Notes: generated by a model from the letters alone, not told the origin. 64,000 nucleotides of DNA from Candidatus Aldehydirespiratoraceae bacterium (GCA_965203375.1 OZ241886.1:1347947-1411946); one strand, 5' to 3'. Shown: positions 5,347-23,753, counted from the first letter of the stretch. Translations and numbers: made by a program.

Positions 5347-5708
5347 CCCTCGCTGGCCCCGGTGCGGGCTCTGGTGTCCGGGCGGGGGCCGGGCCTGCTT
5401 GCCCTGCAGGGGCCCCTCTCGGAGGGGCCGGGACGGTTCCGGGGCGGACGGATTGGCGGGGGCCGCCCCCGGGTTGGCGCGCCGACCGCGGCGGACCGCC
5501 GACCGCGGCGGGCCGTGGTCGCTGGTGGCGCCGCTGCGGTCGGCCGACCTCAGCGACACCGAGACCGGCTTGGCCCGGGCCGTCCAGTTGTTGGACCGCT
5601 ACGGCGTCGTGACCCGCGAGGCGGCCCGGGCCGAGGGCCAGCCGGGCGGCTTCGCCGGGGTGTACCCGGTGCTTGAAGTCCTGGAGGAGCGAGGCTGAGC
5701 CCACCCCC
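5347..5708 (+). pseudogene. decayed duplicate of the lhr 3' end
   Basis: Nucleotide-level similarity to lhr about 3257-3600 (e.g. WSLVAPLRSADLSDTE.GLARA.QLLDRYGVVTREAARAEG.PGGFAGVYPVL), with a 1-nt deletion/frameshift. It then jumps directly to the lhr stop context (CTGAGCCCACCCCC), so about 455 bp of lhr are missing. Confidence 0.85.
5695..5708 (+). repeat. 14-bp direct repeat CTGAGCCCACCCCC (copy 2)
   Basis: Exact match to 4056-4069. Confidence 0.8.
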
Positions 5709-5818
5709 TATGTCGGCAACGCCCTGTTCGGTGATGGCTCGAAAACGGGTCCAGAGTTCTTCTCACTGATTAATGTGTAATGTGGCGAGTGTAAGTGTTT
5801 GGTAGGAAGGAGTTGGAC

Positions 5819-7336
5819 ATGGGAGTTCGAGAGAGCGGCCGGAACAACTCGGCTGCAGGAGATGAAGCCGAAGACTCGTTACCGCATCCCAAGTCGTCTG
5901 TTGTCGCGACACGGAACTTCCTGCTGGCAACGCGAGACTCTGGATACCGCTCAACGGCCGCGGCTGTAGCGGAGTTCGTCGACAACTCGATTCAGGCCGG
6001 AGCTCAAGTTGTTCACGTGCATGTCTTCAAAGGCCTTAACGATCAGTACCCGGTGGAAATCTCAGTCTCTGACGATGGCGAGGGCATGGCGGCTGAAGAT
6101 CTGTCAAGGGCTCTGATGTTTGGTGGGAGCGGACGCTTTGATGATCGTTCTTCACTAGGACGCTATGGAATGGGACTTCCAAACGCAGCTTTGAGCTGCG
6201 CTCGTCGAGTGGACGTTTATAGCTGGCAATCCCGATGCCAGACACTCTTTAGCAAGCTTGATCTCGATGAGATCGTGGATAACCCTAACGCTTCACTTGC
6301 GATTTCAGAGAAATCTGATCGTCCTGCCCTCGCGGCGAGCGACACACACGGCACGTATGTCCACCTCAGTCGATGTGATCGACTAGAACATCGGCGCCCT
6401 TCAACGATCGCCAAGAAGCTATCTCAGTCACTCGGGCGCACATACCGTCACTTCCTCGCACGCGGAATCATCATCACTGTGAATGGTGAGTGTGTATCAT
6501 CAGTTGACCCGCTGTTCTTAGACACGGATTGGGATCACTCGGCGACTGTCTTTGGTGCCCCGCTAACGTACTGTCTCTCGACGGATGCCGGGACTGGCAT
6601 TGTCGAAGCTGTGTTTAGCGAGCTTCCGGTCGAAAAATGGTGTGCCCTCTCCCCTCGTGAGAAGCGTCAACTTGGAATCACCAATGCATCAAATGTTTCA
6701 GTAGTACGAGCTGATCGTGAAGTCGACAATGGTTGGTGGTTCATGGGCAAAAAGAGACGACAGAATTACGACGATTGGTGGCGGTGTGAGATTCGATTCG
6801 ATCCTGTTCTTGATGAACTCTTCGGAATCACCTATACGAAGCAGCAGATAACGCCATCACCTGAGCTTCAAAGTTTGCTCTCAAGGGACATGGAGCCAGT
6901 GGCCAATGCTCTCAATGCTCGGGTCAGACGACGATTTGAATTGGCTAACGCGAAGGGTCCCCTGGCAGATGCAGCTCGAACAGCGGCTCGCTGTTCGCAA
7001 TCGCTTCCACCCCTTCATGGTAGCGGGCGCAGCGCGTCCGCTACATATAGATTCGACGTGGGCGAGATTGTCGGCACATCTGCATTCTCATTGGAAGCGG
7101 ATGGACAGGATCTTTCCGTTGTAGTCAACGAACGTCATCCGCTCTACCGAGATGTCCTTCTTCCGTTAGTCGAAAGCACGACATCGGGTGATCAGCGAAC
7201 TGCGAAGCGAATGGGGCTACTGCTTCTTGCGTTGGCACGCGCTGAAGCAGCAGTTGGCCCCAAGTCAGATCGCAGTCGTGTGGAGCGGTTTCGCCATAAC
7301 TGGTCTGATGTGGCCGCCACCTTCCTGAATGCTTGA
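5819..7336 (+). CDS. GHKL-superfamily ATPase, HATPase_c_3 / prokaryotic MORC-like
   Basis: Bergerat-fold motifs are present: N-box AVAEFVDNSIQAG, G1 box VSDDGEGM, G2 box GRYGMGLPNA. C-terminal region resembles bacterial MORC-like proteins (VVRADREVDNGWWF...WWRCEIRF...LFGITYTKQQI). AAGGAG lies 6 nt upstream of ATG 5819; the ORF track's GTG 5795 is less likely. Confidence 0.8.
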   Translation: MGVRESGRNNSAAGDEAEDSLPHPKSSVVATRNFLLATRDSGYRSTAAAVAEFVDNSIQAGAQVVHVHVFKGLNDQYPVEISVSDDGEGMAAEDLSRALMFGGSGRFDDRSSLGRYGMGLPNAALSCARRVDVYSWQSRCQTLFSKLDLDEIVDNPNASLAISEKSDRPALAASDTHGTYVHLSRCDRLEHRRPSTIAKKLSQSLGRTYRHFLARGIIITVNGECVSSVDPLFLDTDWDHSATVFGAPLTYCLSTDAGTGIVEAVFSELPVEKWCALSPREKRQLGITNASNVSVVRADREVDNGWWFMGKKRRQNYDDWWRCEIRFDPVLDELFGITYTKQQITPSPELQSLLSRDMEPVANALNARVRRRFELANAKGPLADAARTAARCSQSLPPLHGSGRSASATYRFDVGEIVGTSAFSLEADGQDLSVVVNERHPLYRDVLLPLVESTTSGDQRTAKRMGLLLLALARAEAAVGPKSDRSRVERFRHNWSDVAATFLNA

Positions 7337-7345
7337 GTACAAGGC

Positions 7346-9274
7346 GTGGTTTGGTTAACGCTCCCAATACCTAAAGGTCTGCCGACGACGGACCGGACGG
7401 GCTTAGTATCGCTGGTGAGAGAGCTTGCCAAAGGTGATGCCTTGCCGGAACTGCGACGAGATCGGTTTCGCCTAGTGGCTGCCGAAGCGGCAGGAAGTGT
7501 TCTCATCGATCTCTATCGACAGGGGTGGGCCGTCCGACATGGCATGGACTCTGACATTGAGGTTTGCCCGCCTAAGCAGTTCGATGTAGCCGATCGCGAA
7601 AAACGCAGAGTCCAAGAGCAGGAACTTCTACAGAGAGATGAACAGCTACAGAGTCCTACTGTTGAGCGCTTCATACGTAAAATGGAGACACAACGAGAGC
7701 ACAGGGGTAGACTAGTTTCGATTTTTGACCTCATGCGTGATGGATGTGAGTTAGCAACTTCACTGCGCGACCTGCGTTTTACTGAAGGTTCTCCAAGTGA
7801 CGTGAGGTCAGTGATTGATCCTTATCTGCAGATTATTCACCCAACAGAGCGTGATCAGCTAACAGGCCTGAAGCTCATGGATGTGTGGCGGTACTTTCGA
7901 CACACTTGGTCAAATCCGTATACAACTGTTCCGGGTCGTACAATGCTGTTACTTATCCGTGATCGAGCGGTAGATAATCGCCCAGTTATTGGGATAGCGG
8001 CTCTCAGTAGTCCGATCGTGCAACTAGATGAACGCGACCGATGGATCGGATGGCGTTCACAGGATGTGCTTGCAGATCTCGCCTCACAACCGACCTCAGC
8101 GCATGCGCGATGGTTGGTCGGTCGGCTAGAAAAACGAAGAAGCGAGATCTATGTCGATGATCTAATCCGTGATGAACTATTCTGGCCCGGATTATGGGAT
8201 ACTCCCACCTCAGAGGCTGAGGCTGCCCTTAGGAAGGAAGCTAAAATACGTCGCATTGACCATCAGCGGCTTTCACGACGAGCGCATCTTGACGCGTTTG
8301 ACCGTGATCATCCTGACTTCTGGATCCATCGCGCTGAGACGGACCTTTACCGGAGCAAACGTTGTCTCCTCTTGGCCGACCTCATGCGAGACAAGGCCGC
8401 CGTGACGGAGTTCCTGTATCCTTCGCCAGGTGTCGAAGGACTGCGCAGAGCCCTTGCAGATCGGAATGCTAGACTAGCTATTCGAGCTATCACTCGTCGT
8501 GCCAAAGCTGATTCGATTGGCACGGAAGTGGCGGATCTTACCGTCTGTGGAGCTATCGCCCCGTACCGTGAATTAATTGGTGGGAAGCTCGTCACGATGC
8601 TGACAATGAGCCCGACTGTAGTAAGCACCTATCGCCGCAAATATCAACCGTACGAAAGCGAGATCGCCTCCTCTATCGCTGGACGACCCATCAGGCGCGC
8701 CTCAACGCTTGTCTACATAGGTACTACATCTTTGTATGGTGCAACGTCGAGTCAATATAATAGAGTACGCATACCGGCAGAGGTATTAGAGGCAAAGACA
8801 GATATCCGATTGGAGCGGCTAGGTCGGTCTAAGTCCTATGGCACGTCGCATCTCTCAACTGAGACGGTTGCAGCGCTTGTTCGACTCTCAGAGCACACCA
8901 GAATTGGAGCCCGAATAAATAGCATCTTTGGCGAAGGAGTTAACCCGAAGTTGCGCAAGGTACGCGCTGGACTCGATGCTCTCGGCTGGCCATCTGACGA
9001 ATTGCTCCAACATGGTCGTCAACGAATTATCTATGGAGTGTCACTGGTAGAAAACCTGAAGCCGTACCTGCTTGGAATGAATTCACGGCCACGATATCTG
9101 ATGAAAACCACGTTGCCCAATGATATTCAACGTATAGCTGATTGGTGGGGTAATCGGTGGCTGTTGCCACGTATTCAGTCCGATGAGATCCTCGAGCGCG
9201 TGGCGCTGCACACCGTGGAGCTACCAATTCAGCATGGAGCTCGTGTCCCTTTACCGCGATCAGCAGAAATTTAG
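7346..9274 (+). CDS. DUF4338-like protein (DruA-like)
   Basis: Central block WRYFRHTWSNPYTTVPGRTMLLLIRD...PVIGIAALSSPIVQLDERDRWIGW resembles the DUF4338 signature (..RD.WIGW). Starts 9 nt after the GHKL gene, so likely co-transcribed. Confidence 0.6.
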   Translation: MVWLTLPIPKGLPTTDRTGLVSLVRELAKGDALPELRRDRFRLVAAEAAGSVLIDLYRQGWAVRHGMDSDIEVCPPKQFDVADREKRRVQEQELLQRDEQLQSPTVERFIRKMETQREHRGRLVSIFDLMRDGCELATSLRDLRFTEGSPSDVRSVIDPYLQIIHPTERDQLTGLKLMDVWRYFRHTWSNPYTTVPGRTMLLLIRDRAVDNRPVIGIAALSSPIVQLDERDRWIGWRSQDVLADLASQPTSAHARWLVGRLEKRRSEIYVDDLIRDELFWPGLWDTPTSEAEAALRKEAKIRRIDHQRLSRRAHLDAFDRDHPDFWIHRAETDLYRSKRCLLLADLMRDKAAVTEFLYPSPGVEGLRRALADRNARLAIRAITRRAKADSIGTEVADLTVCGAIAPYRELIGGKLVTMLTMSPTVVSTYRRKYQPYESEIASSIAGRPIRRASTLVYIGTTSLYGATSSQYNRVRIPAEVLEAKTDIRLERLGRSKSYGTSHLSTETVAALVRLSEHTRIGARINSIFGEGVNPKLRKVRAGLDALGWPSDELLQHGRQRIIYGVSLVENLKPYLLGMNSRPRYLMKTTLPNDIQRIADWWGNRWLLPRIQSDEILERVALHTVELPIQHGARVPLPRSAEI

Positions 9275-9753: not shown

Positions 9754-12723
9754 GTGGCACGAACTTCTGAGAGGGCTTTCAACGGCCTGTTGGCGCAGGC
9801 GCTGGATGGCAGGCATCCGCGCTGGGATGTGAACGCCGAGCAGACCGGGGTGGTGGCAGGCTCGCCGGGCAAGGTGCCTGACATGGTGGTCATGCCCACA
9901 GGCCCGGCCGGGGCGCCGGTGGTGATCGAAACAGAGTACTACCCGGCCCGGCAGGTGGAGAAAGAGGCCGAGTCCAGGCTCGGGCTGGGATTGGCCGGTT
10001 CGGTGCTGGCAGTGGAGCAGGCTGTGGCTGTGGTGGTCCCGGCTGGACTGCGCGACATCCAGCAGAGAGACTTGCCCGCCGCTATCGAAAGCGCCGAGTT
10101 CTGCTACCGGCTGGCTTCCCTGCGCCCGGGTGGTGGCGTGGAGTGGTTCCCGTCGTCGGGATGGCTCATCGGCGGGGTGGACGACCTAGCCGGGTTGTGT
10201 GAGCAGGTCACCGTCAGCGAACACGCGGTCCAGCAGGCTGCCGACGAGATGGAGCGCGCGGTGGACGCGGTCAGCCACGAACTATCCCGTGCTGTCGTGG
10301 ACGCTCCGGACGTGTTGGCGAACATGGCGGCGGCTTTGAAACTGGAACCGTCGAAGCAGACCACCCGGATAGGGGTGGCGATGCTGGCCAACGCCTTTCT
10401 GTTCCAGATGGCCATTGAGGGAGACACGCACCCTGACACGGGTTGGCGGATTCCCGGACCGGCCCCCGACAGCACACGGGCTCATGTGCTCGACACGTGG
10501 TACAAAATCCTCGGCATCAACTATTGGCCGATCTTCTGGACCGCCAGCAGCGTGTTGGAGCAGATACCGGAGGCGGCGGCGCAGAGCGCCGTGCTGCCGC
10601 AACTGGTCGACATCGCGAAGTCTCTGGCCCGGCACGGTGTCGCGGCCACCGCTGACATGGCCGGGCAGATATTCGGCAAGCTGATAGCAGACCGCAAGTT
10701 CTTGGCCACTTTCTACACCCGCCGGGAATCAGCCCGGCTGTTGGCTGAACTCGCCGTGGCTCGGATGCCGGTCGAGGACTGGTCAGACCGGGAGCGGGTC
10801 GAGTCGCTGAAGATCGCTGATTTGGCGTGCGGGACCGGGGCTCTGCTGTCCGCGGCCTACGACCGGGTCGCATCCAGGGCGCGCCGGGCCGGCTTGGACG
10901 ACGCGGAACTGCACCGGGCCATGATGGAGCAGGTGCTGGTCGGGGTGGACATCATGCCCGCCGCCGCCCATCTCACCTGCACGGCGCTGTCGGCGGCGCA
11001 CCCCAAGAAGCGATACTCCGAATCGGGGATACACCGAGCTCCCTACGGGCGCGTCAAGGACACCGCTCGCTATCCCCAGACAAAGAAGGGCGACAGCGGC
11101 AGCGGAACCCACATCGGCATCGGGTCGCTGGAACTGCTCAGAGACTCTTTCAAACAGACCAGTTGGCTGGATTCGGCCGAGATAAAGGTTCTGCCCGCCC
11201 ACAAAGACGATGACACCGAAACCATCATCCTCGCGCACCGGGCCGCGGATCTGGTGATCATGAACCCGCCGTTCACCCGGCCCACTAACCACGCAATCGC
11301 CGCGGGTGTTCCGGTTCCTTCCTTTGCGGGGCTGGGAAAGGACGACGACGAGCAGGGATTGATGGCGTCGCGTTTGAGACAATTGAGTTCACCAAACAGC
11401 GTCGGACGCGGCAATGCAGGGTTGGGTTCCTTCTTTCTTGATTTAGCCCATGTCAAAATCAAACGAGGGGGCACAATCGCATTCGTGCTACCGCTCACCG
11501 TGGTGTCAGGGGCGGGATGGGAAAAAGCAAGGCAACTATTGTCCCAAGATTACAAAGACATTTTAGTGGTGTCCATCGCCGACACTGGAGCGATGCGCAC
11601 AGCTTTCTCGGCGGATACCAGCATGGCGGAGGTATTGATAATAGCCACACGGCGTCGGCTGGGCGAAACCGTGGAAAGCGACGACCTCTGGGTCGTGCTG
11701 AACAACCGTCCAGCCAATCCGGTAGAAGCGGTTGAAACCGCCCGCCGGATCACCTCTCTCAACCGACACGACCAAGACATCGGCCCATTGAACATGGGAG
11801 ATGCCCAGTCGGGAAGTTTCAGCCGCACGAGTTTCTCCGAAGGCTCTGGATTCGCGGTGCTGCAAAACTTCAACTTAGCGATCTGCGGCAAAGCCATGGC
11901 CGCCGGCAAACTCTGGCTGCCGCGCTTGCACGATGTACCCGGGGTAGCTCTGGTGCCTTTACAGAAATTAGGAGACCGCGGCCCGGTTCACCGCGATATC
12001 AACGGGTACACAGGCAAGCCGCGGGATTCATCCCCACGCGGCCCGTTCAACGTCGAAAAAACAACCGCATGGAAAGTGTCCGAGTATCCGATGCTGTGGG
12101 CGCACAACGCCCGACGCGAAAGCCGCCTCGTTGTTGAACCTGACACGCAAGGCAATATCCGAACCGGCATGGAGGCCAAGGCCGAGAAGATCTGGGCTAC
12201 CAAATCGCGTCTCCACTGCACCCTCGACTTCACTCTAAGTTCTCAGCCTCTCGCGGTGTGCTTAACCCCGGTTCCTTGTATCGGCGGCAGGGCATGGCCC
12301 AGTTTCGCCTTGAACAAGTCTGAATGGGAGTCCGTCGTCTTATTGTGGGCCAACACCACAATGGGGCTTGTAGCGTTCTGGTGGGTTGCCTCCCGACAGC
12401 AGCAAGGTCGTGCGATACTGACTGTCACCCGGCTCCCAGAACTCCCAGTCCTCGACCCTCGGGAGTTGGCCCCGGAGCAACTGACCGCCGCAAAAACGAT
12501 TTTTGACAGGTTCAAGAGTGAAGAGTTCCTGCCAGCCAATGAGGCTTATCACGACCCGACTCGCATAGCCTTAGACGAAGCGGTCTTGATCGAGATGCTC
12601 GGGCTGCACGACACCGCCGGAACCAACGCGGACGAGGTCATGGAGTCGCTGACAGTGTTGCGCGAGCAATGGTGTCGAGAGCAGTCAGTCCACGGTGGCA
12701 AGAATACCCGGCCACAGCCGTAG
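9754..12723 (+). CDS. large N6-type (NPPF) SAM-dependent DNA methyltransferase
   Basis: Motif I IADLACGTGALLSAA and motif IV DLVIMNPPFTRP, arranged as in Eco57I/PglX/DrmMI-like gamma-class methyltransferases. Long C-terminal region could be target recognition. GGGGAG lies upstream of GTG 9754. The gene sits on an intermediate-G+C block. Confidence 0.85.
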   Translation: MARTSERAFNGLLAQALDGRHPRWDVNAEQTGVVAGSPGKVPDMVVMPTGPAGAPVVIETEYYPARQVEKEAESRLGLGLAGSVLAVEQAVAVVVPAGLRDIQQRDLPAAIESAEFCYRLASLRPGGGVEWFPSSGWLIGGVDDLAGLCEQVTVSEHAVQQAADEMERAVDAVSHELSRAVVDAPDVLANMAAALKLEPSKQTTRIGVAMLANAFLFQMAIEGDTHPDTGWRIPGPAPDSTRAHVLDTWYKILGINYWPIFWTASSVLEQIPEAAAQSAVLPQLVDIAKSLARHGVAATADMAGQIFGKLIADRKFLATFYTRRESARLLAELAVARMPVEDWSDRERVESLKIADLACGTGALLSAAYDRVASRARRAGLDDAELHRAMMEQVLVGVDIMPAAAHLTCTALSAAHPKKRYSESGIHRAPYGRVKDTARYPQTKKGDSGSGTHIGIGSLELLRDSFKQTSWLDSAEIKVLPAHKDDDTETIILAHRAADLVIMNPPFTRPTNHAIAAGVPVPSFAGLGKDDDEQGLMASRLRQLSSPNSVGRGNAGLGSFFLDLAHVKIKRGGTIAFVLPLTVVSGAGWEKARQLLSQDYKDILVVSIADTGAMRTAFSADTSMAEVLIIATRRRLGETVESDDLWVVLNNRPANPVEAVETARRITSLNRHDQDIGPLNMGDAQSGSFSRTSFSEGSGFAVLQNFNLAICGKAMAAGKLWLPRLHDVPGVALVPLQKLGDRGPVHRDINGYTGKPRDSSPRGPFNVEKTTAWKVSEYPMLWAHNARRESRLVVEPDTQGNIRTGMEAKAEKIWATKSRLHCTLDFTLSSQPLAVCLTPVPCIGGRAWPSFALNKSEWESVVLLWANTTMGLVAFWWVASRQQQGRAILTVTRLPELPVLDPRELAPEQLTAAKTIFDRFKSEEFLPANEAYHDPTRIALDEAVLIEMLGLHDTAGTNADEVMESLTVLREQWCREQSVHGGKNTRPQP

Positions 12724-12839: not shown

Positions 12840-14069
12840 TTAACTACCATAAGGCTGTCGTTCGACATATACCTCAGAAGTGGCGACAAGAGAAGCGATG
12901 CTCGGAGTGGAGTCAGAGCCGGGGCTCACAACCGCGGCGAGAATGCGTAGCCATGTACCCGACTCATACTGCGCCGTTTCATCAGAGACACGGAGAAGCA
13001 CGTCATCGCCGTTAGCTAGATGAAGTCTCCAACTCTTCGGTCCGCTCTGTTCGACTACCTGGCCGCGCAAGTCCAAAAACCCTTCAGTGGACGCCTCCAT
13101 TGCGAACGAGTGCCAGTACGGGTCACACAGATGTCTGACTGGGCAGAAACGACACTTCTCTTCGCTTGGACTTGCCTGAGGAGGTTCTTCAGCTAGCCGG
13201 CTGGACAGATCTTTGATTCGTGCAACGGTCTGAATCTCAAGATCATCAAGTTCATCAGCATCGGGTATGTCGACCTCTACATCCTCATTAGGATAAGATA
13301 CCGTGAGACGGGTAGCATAAGGGCGAGACGGGTCAAGATTATCGTGGCGTGACCAGATTAGAGCGTATATGCGAAGCTGTTCGGAATAGTTATCCGAGGA
13401 TGCACCAGTCTTGTAATCTACTATATGGACGTCTCGACCACTAATCGTCACGAGGTCTGCCCGGCCATTCATCTGAAGCCTAGTAGATCGTAGTGGCATC
13501 TCAGGATAGGAGCCGTCGATCAAATGTAAGCGCGTAGTTGTCTGCGATTCCGATCGGTAACCCTTCTTTCTGGAGTATAAGCGATCTACATCTGTAGAAA
13601 TGATCGATCGATAGAGGAGTGACTGTATCGTCTGGCGCATTTCAGCACTCCGAAGGGTAAGCCCCTGCCTGAGATATTCGAGCCGGTTGTGGCATCTCGG
13701 ATTCTTCTTTAACTGTTCAATCTTCTCGTCGGTTACTCTCAGAATGATGGCGCTATAGCCACCTAGTGAACGAAGAACTGCAACCGCCTCAGGAGCTTGG
13801 GTGCTGGTGCAACCGCTATCAATGAGCGCTCGAATAATGATCTCTAGACTCTCATGAACTACTGTTCCAGTCAACGCCGCAACGTTAGGTGAATCTGGAT
13901 ACCCATTCTCTTCCCAAAGATCTGGGTACATGGCCCTCCTTAGGCTCCACCGCAGGGGGCAGGTCTCAGCCTCTAAGATGCCCGAAAAACTGAACCACTG
14001 AGGAGGTTCAGGCCAAAATCCCTTGATACCGTTTATGGCAAGGTCGATACTGCGGCTAGTTCTTGACAC
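12840..14069 (-). CDS. PD-(D/E)XK nuclease, Cas4/RecB(AddB)-like with Cys cluster
   Basis: Nuclease core GRADLVTISGRDVHIVDYKTG...QLRIYALIW (D...D/E-x-K...QxxxY). One N-terminal Cys (ETCPLRW) plus C-terminal CRFCPVRHLC give the Cas4/AddB-type 4-Cys pattern. GTG 14069 overlaps the helicase stop by 14 nt; the alternative TTG 14126 would overlap by 71 nt. Confidence 0.8.
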   Translation of the reverse strand: MSRTSRSIDLAINGIKGFWPEPPQWFSFSGILEAETCPLRWSLRRAMYPDLWEENGYPDSPNVAALTGTVVHESLEIIIRALIDSGCTSTQAPEAVAVLRSLGGYSAIILRVTDEKIEQLKKNPRCHNRLEYLRQGLTLRSAEMRQTIQSLLYRSIISTDVDRLYSRKKGYRSESQTTTRLHLIDGSYPEMPLRSTRLQMNGRADLVTISGRDVHIVDYKTGASSDNYSEQLRIYALIWSRHDNLDPSRPYATRLTVSYPNEDVEVDIPDADELDDLEIQTVARIKDLSSRLAEEPPQASPSEEKCRFCPVRHLCDPYWHSFAMEASTEGFLDLRGQVVEQSGPKSWRLHLANGDDVLLRVSDETAQYESGTWLRILAAVVSPGSDSTPSIASLVATSEVYVERQPYGS

Positions 14070-17000
14070 GTCGGATGATTTGGAGGCTGGCAGCCGGGAG
14101 GTTCTGACTGATGAGGATGTCGTCAACTAGTTCAACTGGTGTGCTGACACTGAATTCTTTAGCATCCCGCAAAATAGGGTCAGGAGGATAGTCAGGCGTC
14201 AGTGGACCGTGAGTGCCGATGATGAGGACACCGTCTTCTGTGATGGCTGCGATTGGAGCGATGACTTCGCCGACGCCTTGAATCTCGATCGGCATGCTCC
14301 GCCGGAATTCAACTGCTTCAAGACTATGGCGGGTAAGGTCTTCAAACAGTCGATCTGTCGACCGTTCAATTCTTGCTGAATCAAGGACTGGTTCTCTATT
14401 ATGAAGGAGGTACTGGAGAAGGCTTGCACCAACAAAACGATCCAAATATTGATGTTCGAATCGATTCTTGAAGCTGCGCAGGCACCGGTAACAACTCTTG
14501 TCGCAGTTCGCCGGGCAGTTTTTTAGTAGGTCGAGGGCACTTTGAAGAATCGGCAGACCATGACGACCGACTTCTTGGGCGAAGCCCGCTCCGCCTGGTA
14601 ATGTATCGTACAAATAAATCTCAGCCTCAAAACCGCTCTTTCCCAGATCAGTCAAAGCAGGGCGATACTCCGCTTGAAGTTCGCCGACTTCGATTTCAAG
14701 TTGTCTTGTGGCGCAAATGGTTATCGCTTCGGAAACTGTGCGCATCGCGACGGTGGTTGACAAGAATTCAGGCCGAAGAGTCAAAGGTTCATCTACACGT
14801 AAAGAGATTAGCAGAACGTCAGACACGAAGTCAGTGCCAAGCACCAAGCCCCGCGTGCCTCTACCTCCCGGACACTCTGGCTCTTTCTGGTCGGGGAAAG
14901 GTTTGGTATGCGTTGAGTGAATGTTCCCTGAAGAGATAGCAGTCTGCTCAATTAGGCCGCATCTAGTACAGTATGTGTATCCTTCTTGGTTGGGGCCAGT
15001 ATTGGTGACTATTAAGAAAGTTCTCTGATAGAACTGCCGAATTCGTGGAGTTAATGACTGCCAACTTGTTGATTCTACTGGGAACGGCGTAACTAATTTA
15101 GCGCGAGTTGCATAGCTTCGTGTCGGTTGGTCATCCGGTGATGTTCCCTCAGACTTTGTGTATGGATGTGCAAACCCCGGAGGTCGTATCCAATTACGTG
15201 CCTTCCCAAACTTAGCTTCCGCGCCACATGCGGGACAATCGCGCATTTCGTCTAGTTCAGCATCTGATGGTGACTCAGTTTTTGCATAGTGACAAATGGA
15301 ACACTCAAAGTACAAGCGACGGTCGGCCCACGCGGTCTGCCGGTCGGATCGCATCGGCGAGTAAAGGGCCCCAGAGGTCCATAGCTTCCCATCGATCCAG
15401 ACTTCTTTTCCTGGCGCGTACTGTGAAAGAGCGATCGGCAGCCCCTGACTCGGGGCGTATTGGAACTCCGGCCTGTAATTGGTAGAACTGTCTACATCGA
15501 ACACGTGGAATGAGACTACGTCTGTAGGGAAAGCATATCGAGGCAGCACGCCCTTGTAAAGTAATCTATCGAGTAGGTTCTCTCTTGCTCTCCGTGGGTT
15601 ACTCCTCTCTTCTCCCGTTTCTGCTGGCAATTCAGGTGTATGATCATCACCTTCAACATCACTGTGATATGATACTAGCTGTGATCGTGACTCTGATGTC
15701 GCTGCGTTATCAGACAGATGTTGGTCAAGAGCCCATTCGAGCTTCTGGACCGTGTGACTAGCGAAATTATCAAGAATAGTCGTCCGGTCCTCATCAGATA
15801 GTTGATGTGGCAGCCACGAATCTAGCTCTGATCTAAGATGTCGGGTTTCCTCAGTAAGCCACTTCCGAAAGTCCTTTAGGTTTAATGGCGAGGAAACCTG
15901 CAAGAAGTCATCAACCTTGCCAAGAACTTCGAAAAGCTGTGGTTGAGACTCAGGTTCGATTGTTGGAAGGCGAGCCGAATGGTATCGATGTAGTAGAAAT
16001 GCTGTAACGTGGCGACGAGCTATCTCGATATTGTCTAAGGACAGAATAGGATCGTGGACACTGCCTCGAATCATAGAATCCGGTTCACGAAAGTAATATT
16101 CATCGTGGCTGTCAGCACTACCAAATGCGGTGACCGTAGCAGTAGCCTTACCACGGCGGCCTGCTCGGCCAGAACGCTGTTGGTAACTCGCTCGAGATGG
16201 GGGCATGTTTCGTAGCGCCACTCCCGACAATGATCCGATATCGATCCCTACTTCCATTGTCGTGGTGCATGATAAGACATCAACAGCGGAGCGACCCGGT
16301 TGGTCCGTCGCACCTGAGAAGTCAATGTCCTGGAAGAGTAGTTCGTGCTCCTCAGCTTTAGAGAAGACGGCATCTCCGTGTGCATCCCCCAGTTGCGCAG
16401 TGTGTTCGGCGGCGACAATGACGGTTGGTGGCTTAGGATCATGTGCGAGAGCGCGGACTGTGCTCTGCCGGTAATAGCCTTTACGTGCTCGGAATACCGA
16501 ATCCTTTTCAGGATCGATCTCTTCAACATCGTTTCTAAAGCAGGCAACGCATCTAGACTCTCCAGGGAAGGGACGCTGTGTGGTCTTGCAGGTACGACAA
16601 TAGGCCCAAGCATCTTCGGTATTGAGCGTTAGTCGTGAAGCCCTCATTCTAAATGTGCCACCGTGAGGCTCGCAGAGATGCTTCAGCAAGATAGGTATCC
16701 ACAGCTTCTCAAAGTTCTTGCCTATCTCACTATCTTCAAACCACTTTGCCATGCGCCTAAATTTGCCCTTGTGTCCCCTAACCTCTGTCATCCACCACGA
16801 GGCGGGCATTTTAGGAAACCATATACCAGGGGCAGTCCAATGACTAATCCAAAGTCGGACAAGAGCGAGCCGTTGTTCTTCTGAATCGAACGAAGGGAGA
16901 GACGGTAGTCCATCAAGAAGCTTATCGCGGTCGCGGTCACGTTCCGCCAAAGAACCGAGAGCCAGAGATTGAAGGCCGGTCCATTTGTCGCTGAGAGTTG

Positions 17001-19605
17001 TGACAATTCCTCGGAGGAGTGAGATAGGAACTGATGCCGACTTTGCTCCATCAAACAGGTCTTCGATTTCAGCCGGATCGCCTAAGCCACCAGTGCGTGC
17101 CAGAGTCTCGATATCGCGCTGCAACTGCATGGATTCTCCGGCCTTCAATTCGGGTCTAAGCCGAATGTCGCTTATGCGCGCTCCAAGCATCACAGCAAGA
17201 TAGAGATCTTCGAGGCTAAGGCGATGGCTAATTGACTGGTGCCGTCGGAGTTCTCGAAAGCCAAGCAACATGAGAGGACGCAGCACGTCGCGCATAGCGT
17301 AGGTTTGGAGATTAGGTGCAAGCCGTGCAGCCACCTGCCGCGAGTCAGAGAACGTCAACACCTTTCTACCTCGGAGAGGGGCAAACTCGGTGGCTGCTTG
17401 GGATCCGGGAGGCTGAACTTCAAGCTGACGGGTAACGACAGCCTGGAATGGCATATCGCCTTTCGTTTGGTGATCTTGAACTGACGATCGGCCGTACCCA
17501 GCCTGCTGGTCGCAAATTCCGCACGGACGGAATTCTCCACCTAGACGATCGGATTCATCCGTCCCTTCTTCGTCACCTTCAACTATGCCGCCTTTGCGAT
17601 CTTTGGGGAGGAAAACGATTCTTTTTCTGTCCCCCAACTCGTCTGGATTTAAGCGACCAGTAATTAGATCTAATTCAAAACGCTCGGTCATGTTTGGCAT
17701 CGGTCTTTCCAGACAAATGTCCAGTAGATTGAGTTGGAAGACTTCGCTTGCCGTTGACTTGAATTGTTCGCCCGGTTCCGGCCACAGGAAAGTCGGCTCC
17801 TGCAGGTCGTCGGTATAACCCCTTGCATATGCCGCACCACAATGCCTGCATGTATACAGCTCAAGCACTCGCGCCCCACAAATGCAACTGTCGCGTGGTT
17901 GTGAGTACAGTTTCCCTATCGGTCCTTGTCCATCGACCTCTGGGCAGTCTGAATCAAGGCAGGCCCATAATCCTGGCAGACCTCGGAGAAATGTATGGAT
18001 ACGACAAGGTAGTAATCCTGGATCTTCTGGAGCAGGCCGCGCGAGGCAGCCAATTGTGATCAGAGCAGTCAGTGCTTTATCTGCCCTTTCACCGCGAGTG
18101 CCGAATACATCTTGAGCCAGTTCAGTTAGGGGGCGCGCTTCTTTCATCGTCGTGTTGATAAGCCGGCCCATCGGTGGGTATGATTCGAAGGCCTGAAATA
18201 GGAGTTGTTCGAGATTGCCATTGTCGCCTATGTTTCGCCAACGAAGGAAACCCGATACAGCTTGCCGACGAATGACACTATCCGTCGAGTGTAGATCATC
18301 TAAGGAGATATCGTTAAGGTGATTGATATCTTCGTCAGAACCAAGAGCGTCATGTGTATGCAGAGCAAGCTTTCCATCAATCATGTCGAAGTCTGACAAA
18401 GACTTTCCTGATAATGCTGCGGCGAAGGTTTGGGCTGCGGCTTGATCGTTGAAACTTGCACTCGTGCAAATTACCTGCATACGATCGGCCTGGAGTCCGA
18501 GTCGTGCTCGTAGTCTTCGGATGAGCAGGGCGACTTCGGCACCAGCCGCGCCGCGATAGAGATGCGCCTCGTCTATAACCAGTAGAAGGCGTTGTCCGGG
18601 GTTATACTCTAGCCATGTTTTTGTCGCTTCAAAAATTGGTCTCTCCAAGGGACGCATGAGCATGTATTCGAGCATCGAGTAGTTAGTCACTAGTACATCT
18701 GGCGGTGCCGTTATGACCTCATGTCTAGTGAACAACTCAGCATCGTCGGGGCAGGTCACCGCCCGTACGAACTCGCCATCTCTTAGCCAATGACTGCCAC
18801 TGCGTCCAAACCACTCGCGTAAGTCGGCCTTGGCAGGCCACTTACCTCGCTCCTGAAGGCTGCTGATTAATTTCTGAGCACTCTCGGCGGACTCTCCTGC
18901 TCCGTCTGCTTGATCAAGAAGATCTATGTAGAAGTTTTTGATTGGCTGAAGTCTCGCACTGTCCTTCTTGCTGGTTCGGACTCCAGGGTAGAGCGTTCGA
19001 CTTGTGTATCTTGCAAATCGGGCAGGTCTGCCGGACCATTGCTTGAATCGTCCTGCTACGCCTTCGTTGCCGAAGATGAGTCGGAGTCTTCCTAGTTGGT
19101 CGTTAACTAGTGCGTTCATAGGATATAGGACAAGTGCGCGTGTGGCAGGAATGCTGAACGAATCAGGCTTTTCTCGTGCTTCGATCGCGAGCTTAGCTAA
19201 GATAGGGAGTAGAAAAGCCTCCGTCTTGCCTGATCCTGTTCCGGTTGTAACTACAAGACTTCGGTTATTGTTAACAGTATTAGCTATCGCTCTTGCTTGA
19301 TGATCGTACGGAGGATCGTGAAGTAGTCCGAGACCCCCATTGCTCTTGGAACGTGACATCAACAGTAAGAGTTCGTGGGCAGCTTGCGGCAGATTCAACG
19401 AACCGAAGCTTGGGCCAGAGATGTAACGAGGTGTAGACTCAAGGTAGGGCTGCTGAGAAATCACTCCATGCTCGTCAAGTAATAGTCTGCGTTGTTCGAC
19501 TATTCGCGGATCACTAATGTGATAGGTAGCTTCAATGTAGTCGCGTAGTGCGATCTTGATCTCGTTGATCGTCTGGCCAATCGTAGGGTGCGTGTGTTCA
19601 GCCAC
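14056..19605 (-). CDS. giant DEAH-box helicase with C-terminal DUF1998 (MrfA-type Zn-binding) domain, DruE-like
   Basis: Helicase motifs: I TTGTGSGKTEAF, Ib LYPMNALVNDQ, II VIDEAHLY, III CTSAS, VI QRSGRAGRRG. C-terminal CPANCDKSCYRCLRSFKNRFEH is the DUF1998 Cys4 signature. Several inserted CxxC...CxxC ribbons. At 1849 aa it is the size of DruE. Confidence 0.85.
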   Translation of the reverse strand: MAEHTHPTIGQTINEIKIALRDYIEATYHISDPRIVEQRRLLLDEHGVISQQPYLESTPRYISGPSFGSLNLPQAAHELLLLMSRSKSNGGLGLLHDPPYDHQARAIANTVNNNRSLVVTTGTGSGKTEAFLLPILAKLAIEAREKPDSFSIPATRALVLYPMNALVNDQLGRLRLIFGNEGVAGRFKQWSGRPARFARYTSRTLYPGVRTSKKDSARLQPIKNFYIDLLDQADGAGESAESAQKLISSLQERGKWPAKADLREWFGRSGSHWLRDGEFVRAVTCPDDAELFTRHEVITAPPDVLVTNYSMLEYMLMRPLERPIFEATKTWLEYNPGQRLLLVIDEAHLYRGAAGAEVALLIRRLRARLGLQADRMQVICTSASFNDQAAAQTFAAALSGKSLSDFDMIDGKLALHTHDALGSDEDINHLNDISLDDLHSTDSVIRRQAVSGFLRWRNIGDNGNLEQLLFQAFESYPPMGRLINTTMKEARPLTELAQDVFGTRGERADKALTALITIGCLARPAPEDPGLLPCRIHTFLRGLPGLWACLDSDCPEVDGQGPIGKLYSQPRDSCICGARVLELYTCRHCGAAYARGYTDDLQEPTFLWPEPGEQFKSTASEVFQLNLLDICLERPMPNMTERFELDLITGRLNPDELGDRKRIVFLPKDRKGGIVEGDEEGTDESDRLGGEFRPCGICDQQAGYGRSSVQDHQTKGDMPFQAVVTRQLEVQPPGSQAATEFAPLRGRKVLTFSDSRQVAARLAPNLQTYAMRDVLRPLMLLGFRELRRHQSISHRLSLEDLYLAVMLGARISDIRLRPELKAGESMQLQRDIETLARTGGLGDPAEIEDLFDGAKSASVPISLLRGIVTTLSDKWTGLQSLALGSLAERDRDRDKLLDGLPSLPSFDSEEQRLALVRLWISHWTAPGIWFPKMPASWWMTEVRGHKGKFRRMAKWFEDSEIGKNFEKLWIPILLKHLCEPHGGTFRMRASRLTLNTEDAWAYCRTCKTTQRPFPGESRCVACFRNDVEEIDPEKDSVFRARKGYYRQSTVRALAHDPKPPTVIVAAEHTAQLGDAHGDAVFSKAEEHELLFQDIDFSGATDQPGRSAVDVLSCTTTMEVGIDIGSLSGVALRNMPPSRASYQQRSGRAGRRGKATATVTAFGSADSHDEYYFREPDSMIRGSVHDPILSLDNIEIARRHVTAFLLHRYHSARLPTIEPESQPQLFEVLGKVDDFLQVSSPLNLKDFRKWLTEETRHLRSELDSWLPHQLSDEDRTTILDNFASHTVQKLEWALDQHLSDNAATSESRSQLVSYHSDVEGDDHTPELPAETGEERSNPRRARENLLDRLLYKGVLPRYAFPTDVVSFHVFDVDSSTNYRPEFQYAPSQGLPIALSQYAPGKEVWIDGKLWTSGALYSPMRSDRQTAWADRRLYFECSICHYAKTESPSDAELDEMRDCPACGAEAKFGKARNWIRPPGFAHPYTKSEGTSPDDQPTRSYATRAKLVTPFPVESTSWQSLTPRIRQFYQRTFLIVTNTGPNQEGYTYCTRCGLIEQTAISSGNIHSTHTKPFPDQKEPECPGGRGTRGLVLGTDFVSDVLLISLRVDEPLTLRPEFLSTTVAMRTVSEAITICATRQLEIEVGELQAEYRPALTDLGKSGFEAEIYLYDTLPGGAGFAQEVGRHGLPILQSALDLLKNCPANCDKSCYRCLRSFKNRFEHQYLDRFVGASLLQYLLHNREPVLDSARIERSTDRLFEDLTRHSLEAVEFRRSMPIEIQGVGEVIAPIAAITEDGVLIIGTHGPLTPDYPPDPILRDAKEFSVSTPVELVDDILISQNLPAASLQIIRRVKN

Positions 19606-20677
19606 TTAGATCTCTCTTCCGATCAATCCGTTTGGTCATCCATAAGTGTGTGCAAGCGAACTCAACCTCGTCTCGGGTATCCTCTGCGGCGAACTCGTAG
19701 GCGAAGAGGGCGGAAGGTATACGCACCGGCTCGCCTAAGAGATCCCAACGTCGTTGGAGCCACTTAGGAGGCGGAGTGGGCAAGCCTAGTTTGATCCGAC
19801 CACGTCCAGTCCTTTGGATAATTAGCTGCTGATGGTTACCGTTCACAGCGTCAATTGCCGCTTGCAGTCGCCAGGCTTCGTCGCATCCTCTTACTCCAGG
19901 TATCTGAGACAATGGAAGATCGAGTAACTTATGATGCTCACCAGCACTCAACTCTACGAAACACCATAGATCCGAGCCATAGCCTTGGCTTCGTCTTGCT
20001 AAAAATACGCCAGTGTCTGAAGCGGCAGGCGGTCGCCATCGACCACGATAGAACGATGGTGATGATTTGGGGTCAAGGATTCGGAGACCATCGATGGGAC
20101 CAGATTGGGATTGTTGGTCAAGTCCCCGTACGTAAGCTCCGACAAACTCCGTAGCTTCGACCGGTTCTGGTGATTCCACCCAACTTGTTTCTGTTATCTC
20201 AATGAGCCCGTAGGTTTCCAGTAGCGTATGAACCTCGGAATCAGGATTGATGATGCGTCGCAAATATCCTGTCTCATGCACGCGATCTTGCAAAGCATTC
20301 CCAACTAGTGGTAGATTGTCAGGACGAGTCCCAAAGAGAATAAACTCACCTGATCGACGTCGTATGAATCTCGGCTGGCCGAGATAGATCACTCTTCGGC
20401 GATAACCGAGCGGCTGCTCTACTGACTCAACTAGATCACCGAGATTAATCAGAGCATCAAAAGTCTCTTGTAGAGAATCGTCGTCAATTGGATACACGTG
20501 TTCAAGTACATTCTTTACTGCCAAGATCAAAGCCGATGAAGTAGTTGGACACATTAGGGAAGCTGCTCGTCTCAAGCTAGCGGCGCTCAGGAGATGGTAG
20601 CTGGGTGCAGGAGTTACCTGTAGGGCAGCCGACGTAGCTTCAATCGTGCTAGTAGGAGTCAGTACTCTCAACTCCAT
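19598..20677 (-). CDS. hypothetical protein (359 aa), operon partner of the DruE-like helicase
   Basis: ATG 20677 overlaps the upstream gene's stop (ATGGAGTTGA, 10-nt overlap). Its own stop overlaps the helicase GTG start (GTGGCTGA, 8 nt). No domain recognised by eye. Confidence 0.65.
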   Translation of the reverse strand: MELRVLTPTSTIEATSAALQVTPAPSYHLLSAASLRRAASLMCPTTSSALILAVKNVLEHVYPIDDDSLQETFDALINLGDLVESVEQPLGYRRRVIYLGQPRFIRRRSGEFILFGTRPDNLPLVGNALQDRVHETGYLRRIINPDSEVHTLLETYGLIEITETSWVESPEPVEATEFVGAYVRGLDQQSQSGPIDGLRILDPKSSPSFYRGRWRPPAASDTGVFLARRSQGYGSDLWCFVELSAGEHHKLLDLPLSQIPGVRGCDEAWRLQAAIDAVNGNHQQLIIQRTGRGRIKLGLPTPPPKWLQRRWDLLGEPVRIPSALFAYEFAAEDTRDEVEFACTHLWMTKRIDRKRDLSG

Positions 20678-23661
20678 TCCCAAACCTGTCCCTCTTGATA
20701 GGCTACGATAGCTAGCATCCGTGCAGCTCGGTAGATGATGGGGTGCTCCAATACTGCGTTGAAGTAGACTTCCTTTTGGCCATCTAACCAACCGACTATG
20801 GACTCAGGGGCTGAGGCGAGCCGGAGATGAAACTCAGCCAACCACAATCCTTGCTTCGTGAGCATCGTTCCCGGAAGATTTGCAGTGTTCGAGCGGTCTG
20901 TGAAGGATACCGGCACCCCGCCGACTGATCCTGGTGCATCCACCGATGGATCAGCAATCCTTGAACGAGCTGTGAAGGAATATATACGACTATGGGAATT
21001 CATTGGGATATTTTGTGAAAATTGCTCCACCGGCGGTTCTTCTAACTGGTCTAGTGAGCTTGCTAAAGTTGCAATTCGATTTCGGAAGGATGTCCAGTGT
21101 CTAGGCTTCGCTAGAGCCGCCCCTAATTCTTTAATGGAAAGTGTCCAACCGTCAGAGTGACGCCGTTCGATGGATGCCCACTCTTGACCGCCGATTATTG
21201 AACCGATTTCTCTATTTATTGCAACAGCAACTGCTGCGCGGCGATCGCGAGCCAATAGGTGGCCAGGATATCTGGAATTTGACCATAGTTCCGCTAACTT
21301 GACTAGGTGTGCAATGCTCGCTCCTGTTCGTTCGCGTTTACGAAGTCGCACGGCAGACCGCGCGGATCTGAGATCGTGTAGATCGTGGATGGTCGGCGGC
21401 AGAATTGCCTTTGCCTCGTGGTCGTCAAGCTGTGCTACGAAGAGACCGCCACTCGGGTTGAAATATTCGGAGGCCCTCGTATTGACTGCTCTTCCGATGT
21501 CAGGTGTTTTGAACGGGTAGTGTATGACCTTGATAATCCCGCCAGTGTCGGTGGCTTCATAAAGATGTAGAACTGTTTGACCGTGCATTCGCTGAAACCC
21601 CCAGCGCAAAGGTACGAGTTCACGTTCAAGCAACAATTCCACGTATCCAAAAATGTCATCGCCCAAAGAAAATTTGAGTTGCGTCGCGCTGTCGTACGCT
21701 TCTTGAAATTCTGGGCGTTGCCTCACCTGTGTCTCAAAACATTCCGTCCACTCTGTCGTCGTGACGGGCAATGTGATCTTAAACTTGTGATCAGCTATGA
21801 CAACACCGTTTTCCAAGAGTGCTACCTTTAAGGAAGTCTGAGTTCCTAGTGGTCCATCTGCCGTGACACTTGCTAGACCATCCCAGATATCTTCCAGCGA
21901 AGCTCTAGGTATGGTTATTCGAAGTCGAAGTGGATCTCTGAAGGTTCCGCTCGCGTGCTTAGGTTCCGCTTCGCGCATATGAATTTGGACCCCTAGGTCG
22001 GGGATTGGATGTGTTGCCTCCGGGACTTTGAACGAGAGCCTTAGATCATGCCATCCCTGGCTAAGGTCCCGGAGTTCAAGGACGGCAGCATTATCGATTA
22101 ACTCTTTAGACGAGAGATGGATAACGCTGGCTTCGTTGAGTGTGGCAGTACATGAAACAATTTCGTGGATACACTTCAACCTGAGCATCGGGTTGTCGCC
22201 TACGATCCATTCGCCAACACCATCACCGTCCCATGCAGCGGGAACGAAACCTACGGGCGATACCTCAACACTCGTCTGGACTCCGCAGCCTAGTATTTGA
22301 ACCGTCTGTGTAATTTTTGAATCTATATCGTCGGGCACTTTAACTGCGAGGCATACTGTACCCTCGCACTCGATTTGCTGCTCGTTAACCCAGTCAACGG
22401 GAGGAACTGTAAGGTCCGGTCCCAAGATAATATATGGGATGCCGGTACGAACTAGCCGTGACCTTACGAGATGTCCAGTTCCATCTGTACCGATTCGGAA
22501 CAACCAAGGCTGGCATGAGGGCGTACGGGCTTCACTAGCGAAAAGTTCGGCTGTTAGGGTGGGTGCGCGCTCCAATTCGAAGATTACGGCATCATGGCCA
22601 GGCCACTTGTCGAGCACAACTTGCTGTCCGGAGTCAAGTAGCCACCCACGGGCTCTAGGTCGACCACTGGTGCCGGCGATCCTGCACCTGAGTTGTTCGA
22701 TCTGCTCTGACAGTTCGGGATGTCGGGCGAAGAGAGGTTTGAAGTCGGGCACTCGTAGGCGTAACTGCCAACCTGAACTTCCAGGATACAACGAGAGCGA
22801 GACAGGTGCTGTCGGACGTTGCAACTCAGCGCTTCTTAGGGTCGTTGGTAGCTGTGGCTCGTGAACACGAGCAACTCCTCGGAACCGAATGCGGTCTGCG
22901 GAGGATCGGGCGTCACTAAGCCAGCGTCTAGCTTGCCGCTCTTTAGAGAGGTCGTCCGTAATGCGTTCAAGTGTCGGTGGATCGATCGTTGGTACATCTT
23001 CATGGCCTGCCAGCAGAGTGGCTGCGACATGCCCTAGGAGGTCAGTATTCTGCGCGAACTGTTGAAAGCGTTTAGAGGTGTTCCGGGTACGCGCAGCGAG
23101 TATTCGGCCTAGCTGGTGAGGATCCTTAAGCGAGCCGCTAGTTAGGATTCCTCTATATTCGTACAAGAGTTGAGCGAACTGCCGCTGGAGATCAGTGGGG
23201 AGGATGGCGTGAGTGATAGGCCAGCAGATGATCGAAAATTGACGCGCCCATGCACCGCTAGGTCTTGCGCCGTTGTAGGTCTTCTCAAACTGCAAGAACT
23301 GGGTCTTGACATACTGTCGTGTGGCGTTTCGTTCCCAGCCCGGTGCCTTTGCTTCCAGCGTCGGCCAGTATTGGTCTCCTTCGTAGCTGTATCCGATCTC
23401 GGTTGCATAGACGACAAACGGTAGCCAGTGCTGTCGTGGTGGGTGTGATTGAGATATCCGTGCCTCTACGACATCTGATAGGACGGATCGCTCCTCTGCT
23501 GAAAGACCGTGTTCCATGGCGTAGACCGGCGGCTGGCCAGGGAGTTGCCGTCGTCTGTTAGCCAACTTCCGGAAATGCAGATCGAGTAGTTCGTGGAGGG
23601 ACGAGATCGTGTTCAAGATTTCGGCTGGTGCTGTGGGCCGGACCAGCGGCTTGTTTTCCAC
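20668..23661 (-). CDS. large hypothetical protein (~1000 aa), first gene of the helicase operon
   Basis: Long low-G+C ORF. The ORF-track N-terminus (up to 24354) is an Arg/Pro/Gly-rich read-through into the host ABC permease gene and is rejected. The start is uncertain. GTG 23661 is favoured because it sits 6 nt after a CATAAT -10 box, a leaderless arrangement. Alternatives are GTG 23757 and ATG 23517. Confidence 0.7.
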   Translation of the reverse strand: MENKPLVRPTAPAEILNTISSLHELLDLHFRKLANRRRQLPGQPPVYAMEHGLSAEERSVLSDVVEARISQSHPPRQHWLPFVVYATEIGYSYEGDQYWPTLEAKAPGWERNATRQYVKTQFLQFEKTYNGARPSGAWARQFSIICWPITHAILPTDLQRQFAQLLYEYRGILTSGSLKDPHQLGRILAARTRNTSKRFQQFAQNTDLLGHVAATLLAGHEDVPTIDPPTLERITDDLSKERQARRWLSDARSSADRIRFRGVARVHEPQLPTTLRSAELQRPTAPVSLSLYPGSSGWQLRLRVPDFKPLFARHPELSEQIEQLRCRIAGTSGRPRARGWLLDSGQQVVLDKWPGHDAVIFELERAPTLTAELFASEARTPSCQPWLFRIGTDGTGHLVRSRLVRTGIPYIILGPDLTVPPVDWVNEQQIECEGTVCLAVKVPDDIDSKITQTVQILGCGVQTSVEVSPVGFVPAAWDGDGVGEWIVGDNPMLRLKCIHEIVSCTATLNEASVIHLSSKELIDNAAVLELRDLSQGWHDLRLSFKVPEATHPIPDLGVQIHMREAEPKHASGTFRDPLRLRITIPRASLEDIWDGLASVTADGPLGTQTSLKVALLENGVVIADHKFKITLPVTTTEWTECFETQVRQRPEFQEAYDSATQLKFSLGDDIFGYVELLLERELVPLRWGFQRMHGQTVLHLYEATDTGGIIKVIHYPFKTPDIGRAVNTRASEYFNPSGGLFVAQLDDHEAKAILPPTIHDLHDLRSARSAVRLRKRERTGASIAHLVKLAELWSNSRYPGHLLARDRRAAVAVAINREIGSIIGGQEWASIERRHSDGWTLSIKELGAALAKPRHWTSFRNRIATLASSLDQLEEPPVEQFSQNIPMNSHSRIYSFTARSRIADPSVDAPGSVGGVPVSFTDRSNTANLPGTMLTKQGLWLAEFHLRLASAPESIVGWLDGQKEVYFNAVLEHPIIYRAARMLAIVAYQEGQVWEWS

Positions 23662-23697: not shown

Positions 23698-23753
23698 GAA
23701 TTGGTCGGTTACCACGCCCGGTTGATCCGGTCGACGGAGTTTGACCGCGAGAG

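Follow-up and report, generated by a model that had tools for sequence, protein, structure and literature searches.

The locus described here lies in a stretch of 64,000 nucleotides (nt) from Candidatus Aldehydirespiratoraceae bacterium (GCA_965203375.1 OZ241886.1:1347947-1411946; hereafter the window, with positions counted from its first letter), in which four co-directional open reading frames (ORFs) run head to tail along the minus strand from 23661 to 12840, joined by start/stop overlaps. In their order of translation they encode a large protein of unnamed family that we call X (20668..23661; 997 amino acids, aa, or alternatively 1015 aa), the Druantia protein DruD (19598..20677; 359 aa), a type-I-clade DruE helicase (14056..19605; 1849 aa) and a Cas4/AddB-like PD-(D/E)XK nuclease (12840..14069; 409 aa). 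Encoded on the plus strand, convergent with this operon, are DruA in its long form (7346..9274; 642 aa) and, directly upstream of it, a GHKL-type ATPase (5795..7336; 513 aa). We read the DruA-X-DruD-DruE composition as a widespread, undescribed variant of type I Druantia, with X in the slot of DruB and DruC, and not as a new class of system.

The three internal junctions were read directly and lie where an earlier reading of this DNA, made from the sequence alone (the sequence-only reading), had placed them. X gives way to druD at ATGGAGTTGA (20677-20668), the ATG opening the 359-aa gene and the TGA closing the 997-aa gene within a 10-nt overlap; druD and druE share 8 nt at GTGGCTGA (19605-19598), and at GTG...TAG (14069-14056) the nuclease gene start and the end of druE have 14 nt in common. 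In 156 related loci the median gap from X to DruD is -4 nt (interquartile range -10 to -4), the two genes overlapping in 87%, and the spacing is 30 nt or less from DruD to DruE in 93% and from DruE to the nuclease in 99%; individual values are approximate, because the start codon counted was in each case the candidate closest to the position predicted from the alignment. The coupling exceeds chance. Scans across the operon for internal sigma-70 promoters and intrinsic terminators found none above the shuffled expectation. The start of X itself is ambiguous between the GTG at 23661 (997 aa) and the GTG at 23715 (1015 aa, the database length for X), with conservation starting only at about residue 19 of the 997-aa form.

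DruD and DruE

The sequence-only reading had described the first two products as large proteins of unknown family. That description stands for X, which has no family match, and is overstated for the 359-aa protein, because DruD is a named family: the protein matches the PADLOC model DruD1 (PDLC00010) with E = 2.9e-89 and, when compared by hhalign with a PADLOC-verified canonical DruD, aligns over nearly its full length with 76% probability (E = 2e-5), in keeping with the suggestion that one of the two could be a DruD. DruD is homologous between the X-type and the canonical type I subtypes. The AlphaFold2 model of DruD is of high quality (predicted local distance difference test, pLDDT, 93; predicted template modelling score 0.87); Foldseek found no significant neighbour for it in the PDB (best E = 0.08), the weak local matches being to the winged-helix regulators PadR and Fur, and residues 28-99 are modelled as a helix-helix-helix-strand-strand succession that fits the winged-helix pattern.

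DruE is a superfamily 2 helicase of the YprA/MrfA family with an MZB (DUF1998) zinc domain, and shows the Pfam domains DEAD, Helicase_C and MZB. It scores 1904 bits with the PADLOC model DruE1 (PDLC00013) and at most 637 bits with the models DruE2, DruE3 and DruE4. Its helicase motifs are intact (Walker A GSGKT at aa 124, DEAH at aa 345), it carries eight CxxC motifs, and it matches the type III DruE structures 9tu7 (E = 3e-78) and 9wae (E = 5e-64) in the PDB. The earlier proposal of a translationally coupled defence operon around a DruE helicase is supported.

X, a distinct family tied to DruD and DruE

Searches with X, whole and in halves, against Pfam, NCBIfam and PADLOC gave no matches up to E = 10; no PADLOC model matched any of 16 diverse X relatives, and PDB sequences, searched both with the single X protein and with a profile of 73 sequences, returned only noise (E >= 0.17). 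Its homologues, on the other hand, are numerous: they form at least 455 clusters at 90%, are 950-1000 aa long and are all 'hypothetical' and unnamed, and a search of 1.84 billion representatives with the N-terminal 270 residues retrieved 846 clusters, of which 471 match at E <= 1e-30. The N-terminal motifs singled out by the sequence-only reading (YAMEHGLSAEE, WLPFVVYATEIGYSYEGDQYWP, PGWERN and FSIICWPITHAILP) are present in the translation and fall in the best-conserved part of the family; residues kept in at least 90% of the 73 sequences include E50, H51, E88, Y91, H151, D157, Q159, R198 and R233. X forms a family of its own, about 950-1000 residues long, which replaces DruB and DruC of the canonical five-gene system.

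Three censuses agree on the company that X keeps, one anchored on DruD in species-representative genomes (202 loci, the best 80 kept), one anchored on X in metagenome contigs (429 relatives, the best 80 kept) and one of annotated plasmids. Among the 80 DruD-anchored loci retained, an X homologue lies directly upstream of DruD in every one (80/80, including one in which only the C-terminal part of X is present because of a contig end), and DruE lies directly downstream of DruD wherever the contig reaches that far. The X-anchored loci agree: DruD adjoins X in all 70 with enough downstream sequence, and DruE was found in 65 of 65. The DruD-anchored loci span Actinomycetota (many of them Streptomyces), Chloroflexota, Pseudomonadota, Myxococcota, Acidobacteriota, Nitrospirota, Bacteroidota, Patescibacteria and others, the X-DruD-DruE adjacency being invariant over more than ten phyla; the nearest related loci are in metagenome-assembled genomes of Acidimicrobiia (Ca. 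Aldehydirespiratoraceae, Ca. Poriferisodalis). The annotated plasmid pNWAT01 of Nitrosococcus watsonii carries a compact DruA-X-DruD-DruE operon, and a scan of viral_contigs with DruD retrieved only three loci, all of the X type. The sequence-only reading had proposed asking whether homologues of its two unassigned proteins are always adjacent to DUF1998 helicases, and in the genome and metagenome censuses they are. X is an obligate partner of DruD and DruE. DruA was found in most related loci, and the conserved core consists of X, DruD and DruE with DruA encoded nearby, here together with the GHKL ATPase.

Some related loci depart from the plain arrangement. An ORF of about 250 aa is inserted between DruD and DruE in about six of them (e.g. 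L115, 4777-5526), and plasmid pMl4 of Sinorhizobium medicae (L002, 8122-17394) carries a decaying X-type system, with an X match over 66% of its length, an unannotated gap before DruD and a DruE split by an IS3 transposase.

Predicted architecture of X

The AlphaFold2 model of X, built on the 73-sequence alignment, has a pLDDT of 86 and places an alpha-helical N-terminal domain, a central beta-rich region and an alpha-helical C-terminal domain in this order. The N-terminal all-alpha domain (aa 1-264; 22870..23661, minus strand) is the best-conserved part of the protein and is modelled mostly with pLDDT above 90; DSSP of the model assigns the beta-rich region to aa 288-754 (21400..22800, minus strand), and the C-terminal domain comprises aa 780-989 (20695..21324, minus strand), with a disordered insert at aa 895-934. 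Foldseek searches of the PDB and BFVD with the full-length model returned only tandem arrays of immunoglobulin-like (Ig-like), fibronectin type III (FN3) and macroglobulin domains, with template modelling scores of 0.06-0.12, so low that they support the domain type and point to no specific relative; they say nothing on either the N-terminal or the C-terminal domain. We therefore read the central region, as modelled, as a probable array of Ig-like/FN3-like beta-sandwich domains. Structure prediction followed by Foldseek, which the sequence-only reading had recommended for both proteins, yielded generic arrays for X and nothing significant for DruD.

The N-terminal domain of X also occurs alone, opening other large proteins without recognised domains (1012 aa and 1259 aa). 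On a Leisingera plasmid (L087, 22495-25533) such a protein lies in an operon with an SNF2/DpdE/DrmD-like helicase, and the surroundings contain GHKL and DruA as well as a NERD protein and a helicase like DruE1; on an Azospirillum plasmid (L003, 8245-12024) another adjoins an operon of UvrD, helicase, DUF1998 and NERD genes. These two loci may represent further undescribed defence systems sharing the module. The domain also marks other uncharacterised helicase-associated loci, possibly defence systems.

Comparison with canonical type I Druantia

Doron et al. are said to have described type I Druantia in 2018 as DruA-DruB-DruC-DruD-DruE. Searching E. coli genomes for the canonical system by blastn with a gammaproteobacterial druE gave no match, and canonical five-gene loci were recovered by tblastn of plasmids, from Pseudomonas putida pKF715A and Ralstonia solanacearum pUW163a. 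Their DruB (PDLC00005), DruC (PDLC00006) and DruD (PDLC00009) were verified by PADLOC, with E = 1e-203 to 1e-272 for DruB and DruC, and in these systems DruB and DruC sit exactly in the slot that X fills. Both forms share DruA (DUF4338), DruD and a DruE of the type I clade in the same relative order and tightly packed, and both are found on mobile or island DNA. They differ in that the X-type system lacks DruB and DruC and has in their slot a single unrelated protein of about 1000 aa; its DruD fits PDLC00010 whereas the canonical DruD fits PDLC00009, its DruA is often the long form accompanied by a GHKL ATPase and sometimes on the opposite strand, and a Cas4-like nuclease is often appended.

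The sequence-only reading had suggested that the 997-aa protein could be a fusion of DruB and DruC. If such a fusion had diverged past sequence recognition, the locus would be an ordinary type I system working like the five-gene one, and the position of X between DruA and DruD, exactly where DruB and DruC lie, would follow at once. Sizes are roughly alike (997 aa against 477-558 plus 623-625 aa), and DruE (about 32% identity) and DruD (by the hhalign comparison given above) are themselves highly diverged between the subtypes. However, the X profile gave hhalign values of 0.14% against the verified DruB and 0.32% against the verified DruC, a comparison whose sensitivity is limited because the DruB and DruC profiles held two sequences each, and the PADLOC DruB and DruC models matched neither X nor any of its relatives (0/16). 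By these tests both proteins are absent from the locus, and for DruB no other candidate ORF was found in the island. The features of the two proteins are likewise missing from the X model: DruC has weak SMC/JetC-like PADLOC matches at residues ~150-380, a Cys-rich segment opens DruB, and X shows a beta-sandwich array instead. We consider a diverged fusion unlikely and, given the lack of similarity to DruB and DruC, X is therefore a positional replacement without detectable homology to them.

DruA, DruD and DruE are common to both forms, and the DruB/DruC slot is an exchangeable module. Models for DruA, DruD and DruE in PADLOC 2.0.0 fit the X-type subtype and there is none for X; therefore, tools that require DruB and DruC may call such loci incomplete. 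We found no description of the DruA-X-DruD-DruE composition in the searchable literature, and the published work found on defence by type I Druantia concerns E. coli systems (e.g. 10.1101/2024.04.14.589459), with no test of an X-containing system among it.

DruA, the GHKL ATPase and the Cas4-like nuclease

The sequence-only reading, right as to the operon, had missed DruA, whose presence makes the locus a type I-like Druantia system. The assignment rests on the PADLOC model DruA1 (PDLC00001, E = 5.8e-197) and on the Pfam family DruA (PF14236, E = 3.9e-27). The adjoining ATPase matches Pfam HATPase_c_3 (E = 6.7e-21) and PADLOC MzaB (E = 1e-15). A GHKL/MORC-like ATPase is consistently paired with long-form DruA across phyla, and also at the Leisingera locus, which suggests that the two form a submodule.

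The nuclease at the end of the operon matches Pfam PDDEXK_1 (PF12705, E = 7.5e-20), the PADLOC model 'DruK' (E = 1.5e-14) and TIGR00372 cas4 (E = 1e-11), the last at 44.9 bits against a curated cas4 cut-off of 65. Its predicted active site is intact (D205, D218-x-K220, Q231xxxY235) and four cysteines (Cys37/306/309/315) are those of an iron-sulphur (Fe-S) cluster site, so that it shares with Cas4/AddB-type Fe-S nucleases and 'DruK' the D...DxK site, the QxxxY motif and the four cysteines. Unlike Cas4, it is 409 aa long with about 190 extra N-terminal residues, is coupled to DruE and has no CRISPR-cas genes adjoining. A nuclease of this kind comes after DruE in roughly half of the related loci (in the second census, 44 of the 82 in which X was matched), and it is a frequent accessory gene outside the conserved core.

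About 17-20 X-type loci without the nuclease carry after DruE a DUF4365 protein (195 aa) and an unknown 397-aa protein, a pair seen in Streptomyces-type loci (L038, 16677-17264; L068, 17263-18456).

A possible mode of action and the likeness of X to DruH

The helical/Ig-like array/helical layout of the X model is also the order of parts in the published structures of DruH, the large protein of type III Druantia. DruH has been described as a 3'-5' exonuclease with a putative active site in its N-terminal domain which recruits DruE, and its structure searches gave Ig-like matches only (bioRxiv 10.64898/2026.05.13.724313); another preprint describes it as an ATP-regulated binder of single-stranded DNA (ssDNA; 10.64898/2026.05.12.722862). 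Both X and DruH (STY4851/ECs_5259 family, PDB 9tud) are large (about 1000-1100 aa), are encoded upstream of DruE and have a conserved N-terminal domain, and both give only Ig-like structure matches. On the other hand, X is always accompanied by DruD, and in most loci by DruA, and its helicase is DruE1 and not DruE3.

On balance we lean towards the view that the four genes make up the effector operon of an anti-phage system, a variant of type I Druantia, and that X, DruD and DruE would form one complex with X in a DruH-like role. Translational coupling would then deliver the three proteins in fixed proportion for action as one complex. We propose that X, like DruH in type III Druantia, would recognise or process ends, forks or ssDNA exposed on phage DNA, and that it would thereupon recruit or license the 3'-5' helicase DruE, with DruD as a putative DNA-binding adaptor made up, according to its model, of a winged-helix N-terminal domain and a novel C-terminal fold. 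For type I DruE, the Vsr nuclease domain has been reported as inactivated (Bell et al. 2025, PMC12458937), and because of that report the destruction of DNA would be assigned to the co-translated Cas4-like nuclease, to the N-terminal domain of X, or to both. DruA and the GHKL ATPase could serve regulation or the marking of self and non-self.

A number of observations weigh against this reading. Taking as reference the E. coli DruH of a type III locus (L090), which matches PDB 9tud and for which a 28-sequence alignment was built, hhalign of X against it gave 0.6% over the full length and 0.1-0.9% domain by domain. The DruH Pfam families PF27205 and PF27201, present in the precomputed annotations of DruH homologues, are missing from those of X homologues (the Pfam set used for the scan of the window lacked the DruH families, so that the null result of X there has no bearing on DruH). 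Neither did the search of PDB sequences with the X profile retrieve 9tud, nor did Foldseek with X return it from the PDB, to whose searched copy the entry may be posterior. The suggestion of the sequence-only reading that X could be a DruH thus fails by sequence and holds solely in the predicted order of domains: the likeness of X to DruH is one of predicted layout only, and tandem Ig arrays between helical domains could be convergent. Furthermore, about half of the X-type loci have no Cas4-like nuclease, which is therefore not a universal effector. Finally, type I Druantia of E. coli has been linked to an N6-methyladenine (m6A) mark with no methylase identified (10.1101/2024.04.14.589459), and this link hints at a self/non-self logic unlike that of type III.

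It is tempting, and we put it forward only tentatively, to go further and see in X what corresponds to DruH in type I: a rapidly evolving protein, built as a helical domain, an Ig-like array and a second helical domain, that senses or processes the ends of phage DNA and licenses DruE. A somewhat more doubtful version is that X is a true, very remote homologue of DruH, all Druantia helicases sharing an ancestral partner of this layout and the X-type subtype bridging types I and III. Such descent would account for the same order of domain classes in proteins of similar size (997 against 1096-1119 aa), for the generic Ig-like structure matches of both and for their genes standing directly upstream of a druE; between the E. 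coli DruH and the solved protein only the N-terminal domain is conserved, so that the family evolves fast. Yet profile-profile comparison gave no signal in any domain, DruD separates X from DruE whereas DruH abuts DruE, and the motifs differ (WPITHAxLPxDLQ in X, EWYRREY...GWSWDP in DruH).

Ig-like and FN3 arrays being classical protein-binding modules, X might instead sense a phage protein and not DNA, its array binding a structural or replication protein and thereby triggering DruE, and its N-terminal domain being a module for signalling or enzymatic activity that has nothing to do with DNA ends. The portability of that domain, which occurs with other helicases (SNF2, UvrD, DrmA-like), would suit such a role. 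Nonetheless, the best-conserved part of X is the N-terminal domain and not the Ig array, all partners of X are DNA enzymes, and DruH, the sole characterised protein with the layout of X, acts on DNA; a protein sensor seems to us quite improbable.

Were X indeed the counterpart of DruH, Druantia types I and III would have one mechanism in common, and the X-type operon, rather than the DruB/DruC form of E. coli, would be the widespread type I outside Proteobacteria. Type I would then be connected with the mechanisms worked out for type III in 2026, with the prediction that X binds DNA ends or forks and recruits DruE, and the N-terminal domain of X (E50, H51, E88, H151, D157, Q159) would represent a novel module for DNA processing, one also serving systems with SNF2 and DrmA-like helicases. 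As a widespread unnamed core component, X offers type I a testable link to the mechanism of type III.

Genomic island and neighbouring genes

The dru genes belong to a low-GC (guanine plus cytosine) island that extends from about 4 kb to 23.75 kb with roughly 51-54% GC, well below the host flanks (about 71-77% GC; lhr, FtsX/MacB permease), and which has therefore been acquired horizontally. Defence islands are often acquired in this way. Neither tRNA genes nor clean flanking direct repeats were found that would mark its ends. Just ahead of the gene for the GHKL ATPase sits a duplicate of about 350 bp (5349-5695), 87% identical to 3258-3597 in the 3' part of the lhr helicase gene of the host (94-4059), which was probably left behind by island integration or by recombination.

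Between druA and the nuclease gene lies, on the plus strand, a gene of the gamma-class N6-adenine DNA methyltransferase type (9754-12723; 989 aa), whose product carries motif I (DLACGTG, aa 354-362) and motif IV (NPPF, aa 504) and has weak matches to PglX and type II methyltransferases. It was ruled out as a member of the system, since no homologue was present in the other loci examined and its GC content (62%) differs from that of the dru genes (51-54%), and it looks like a lineage-specific insertion. Its presence is intriguing all the same, given the link between m6A marking and type I Druantia.

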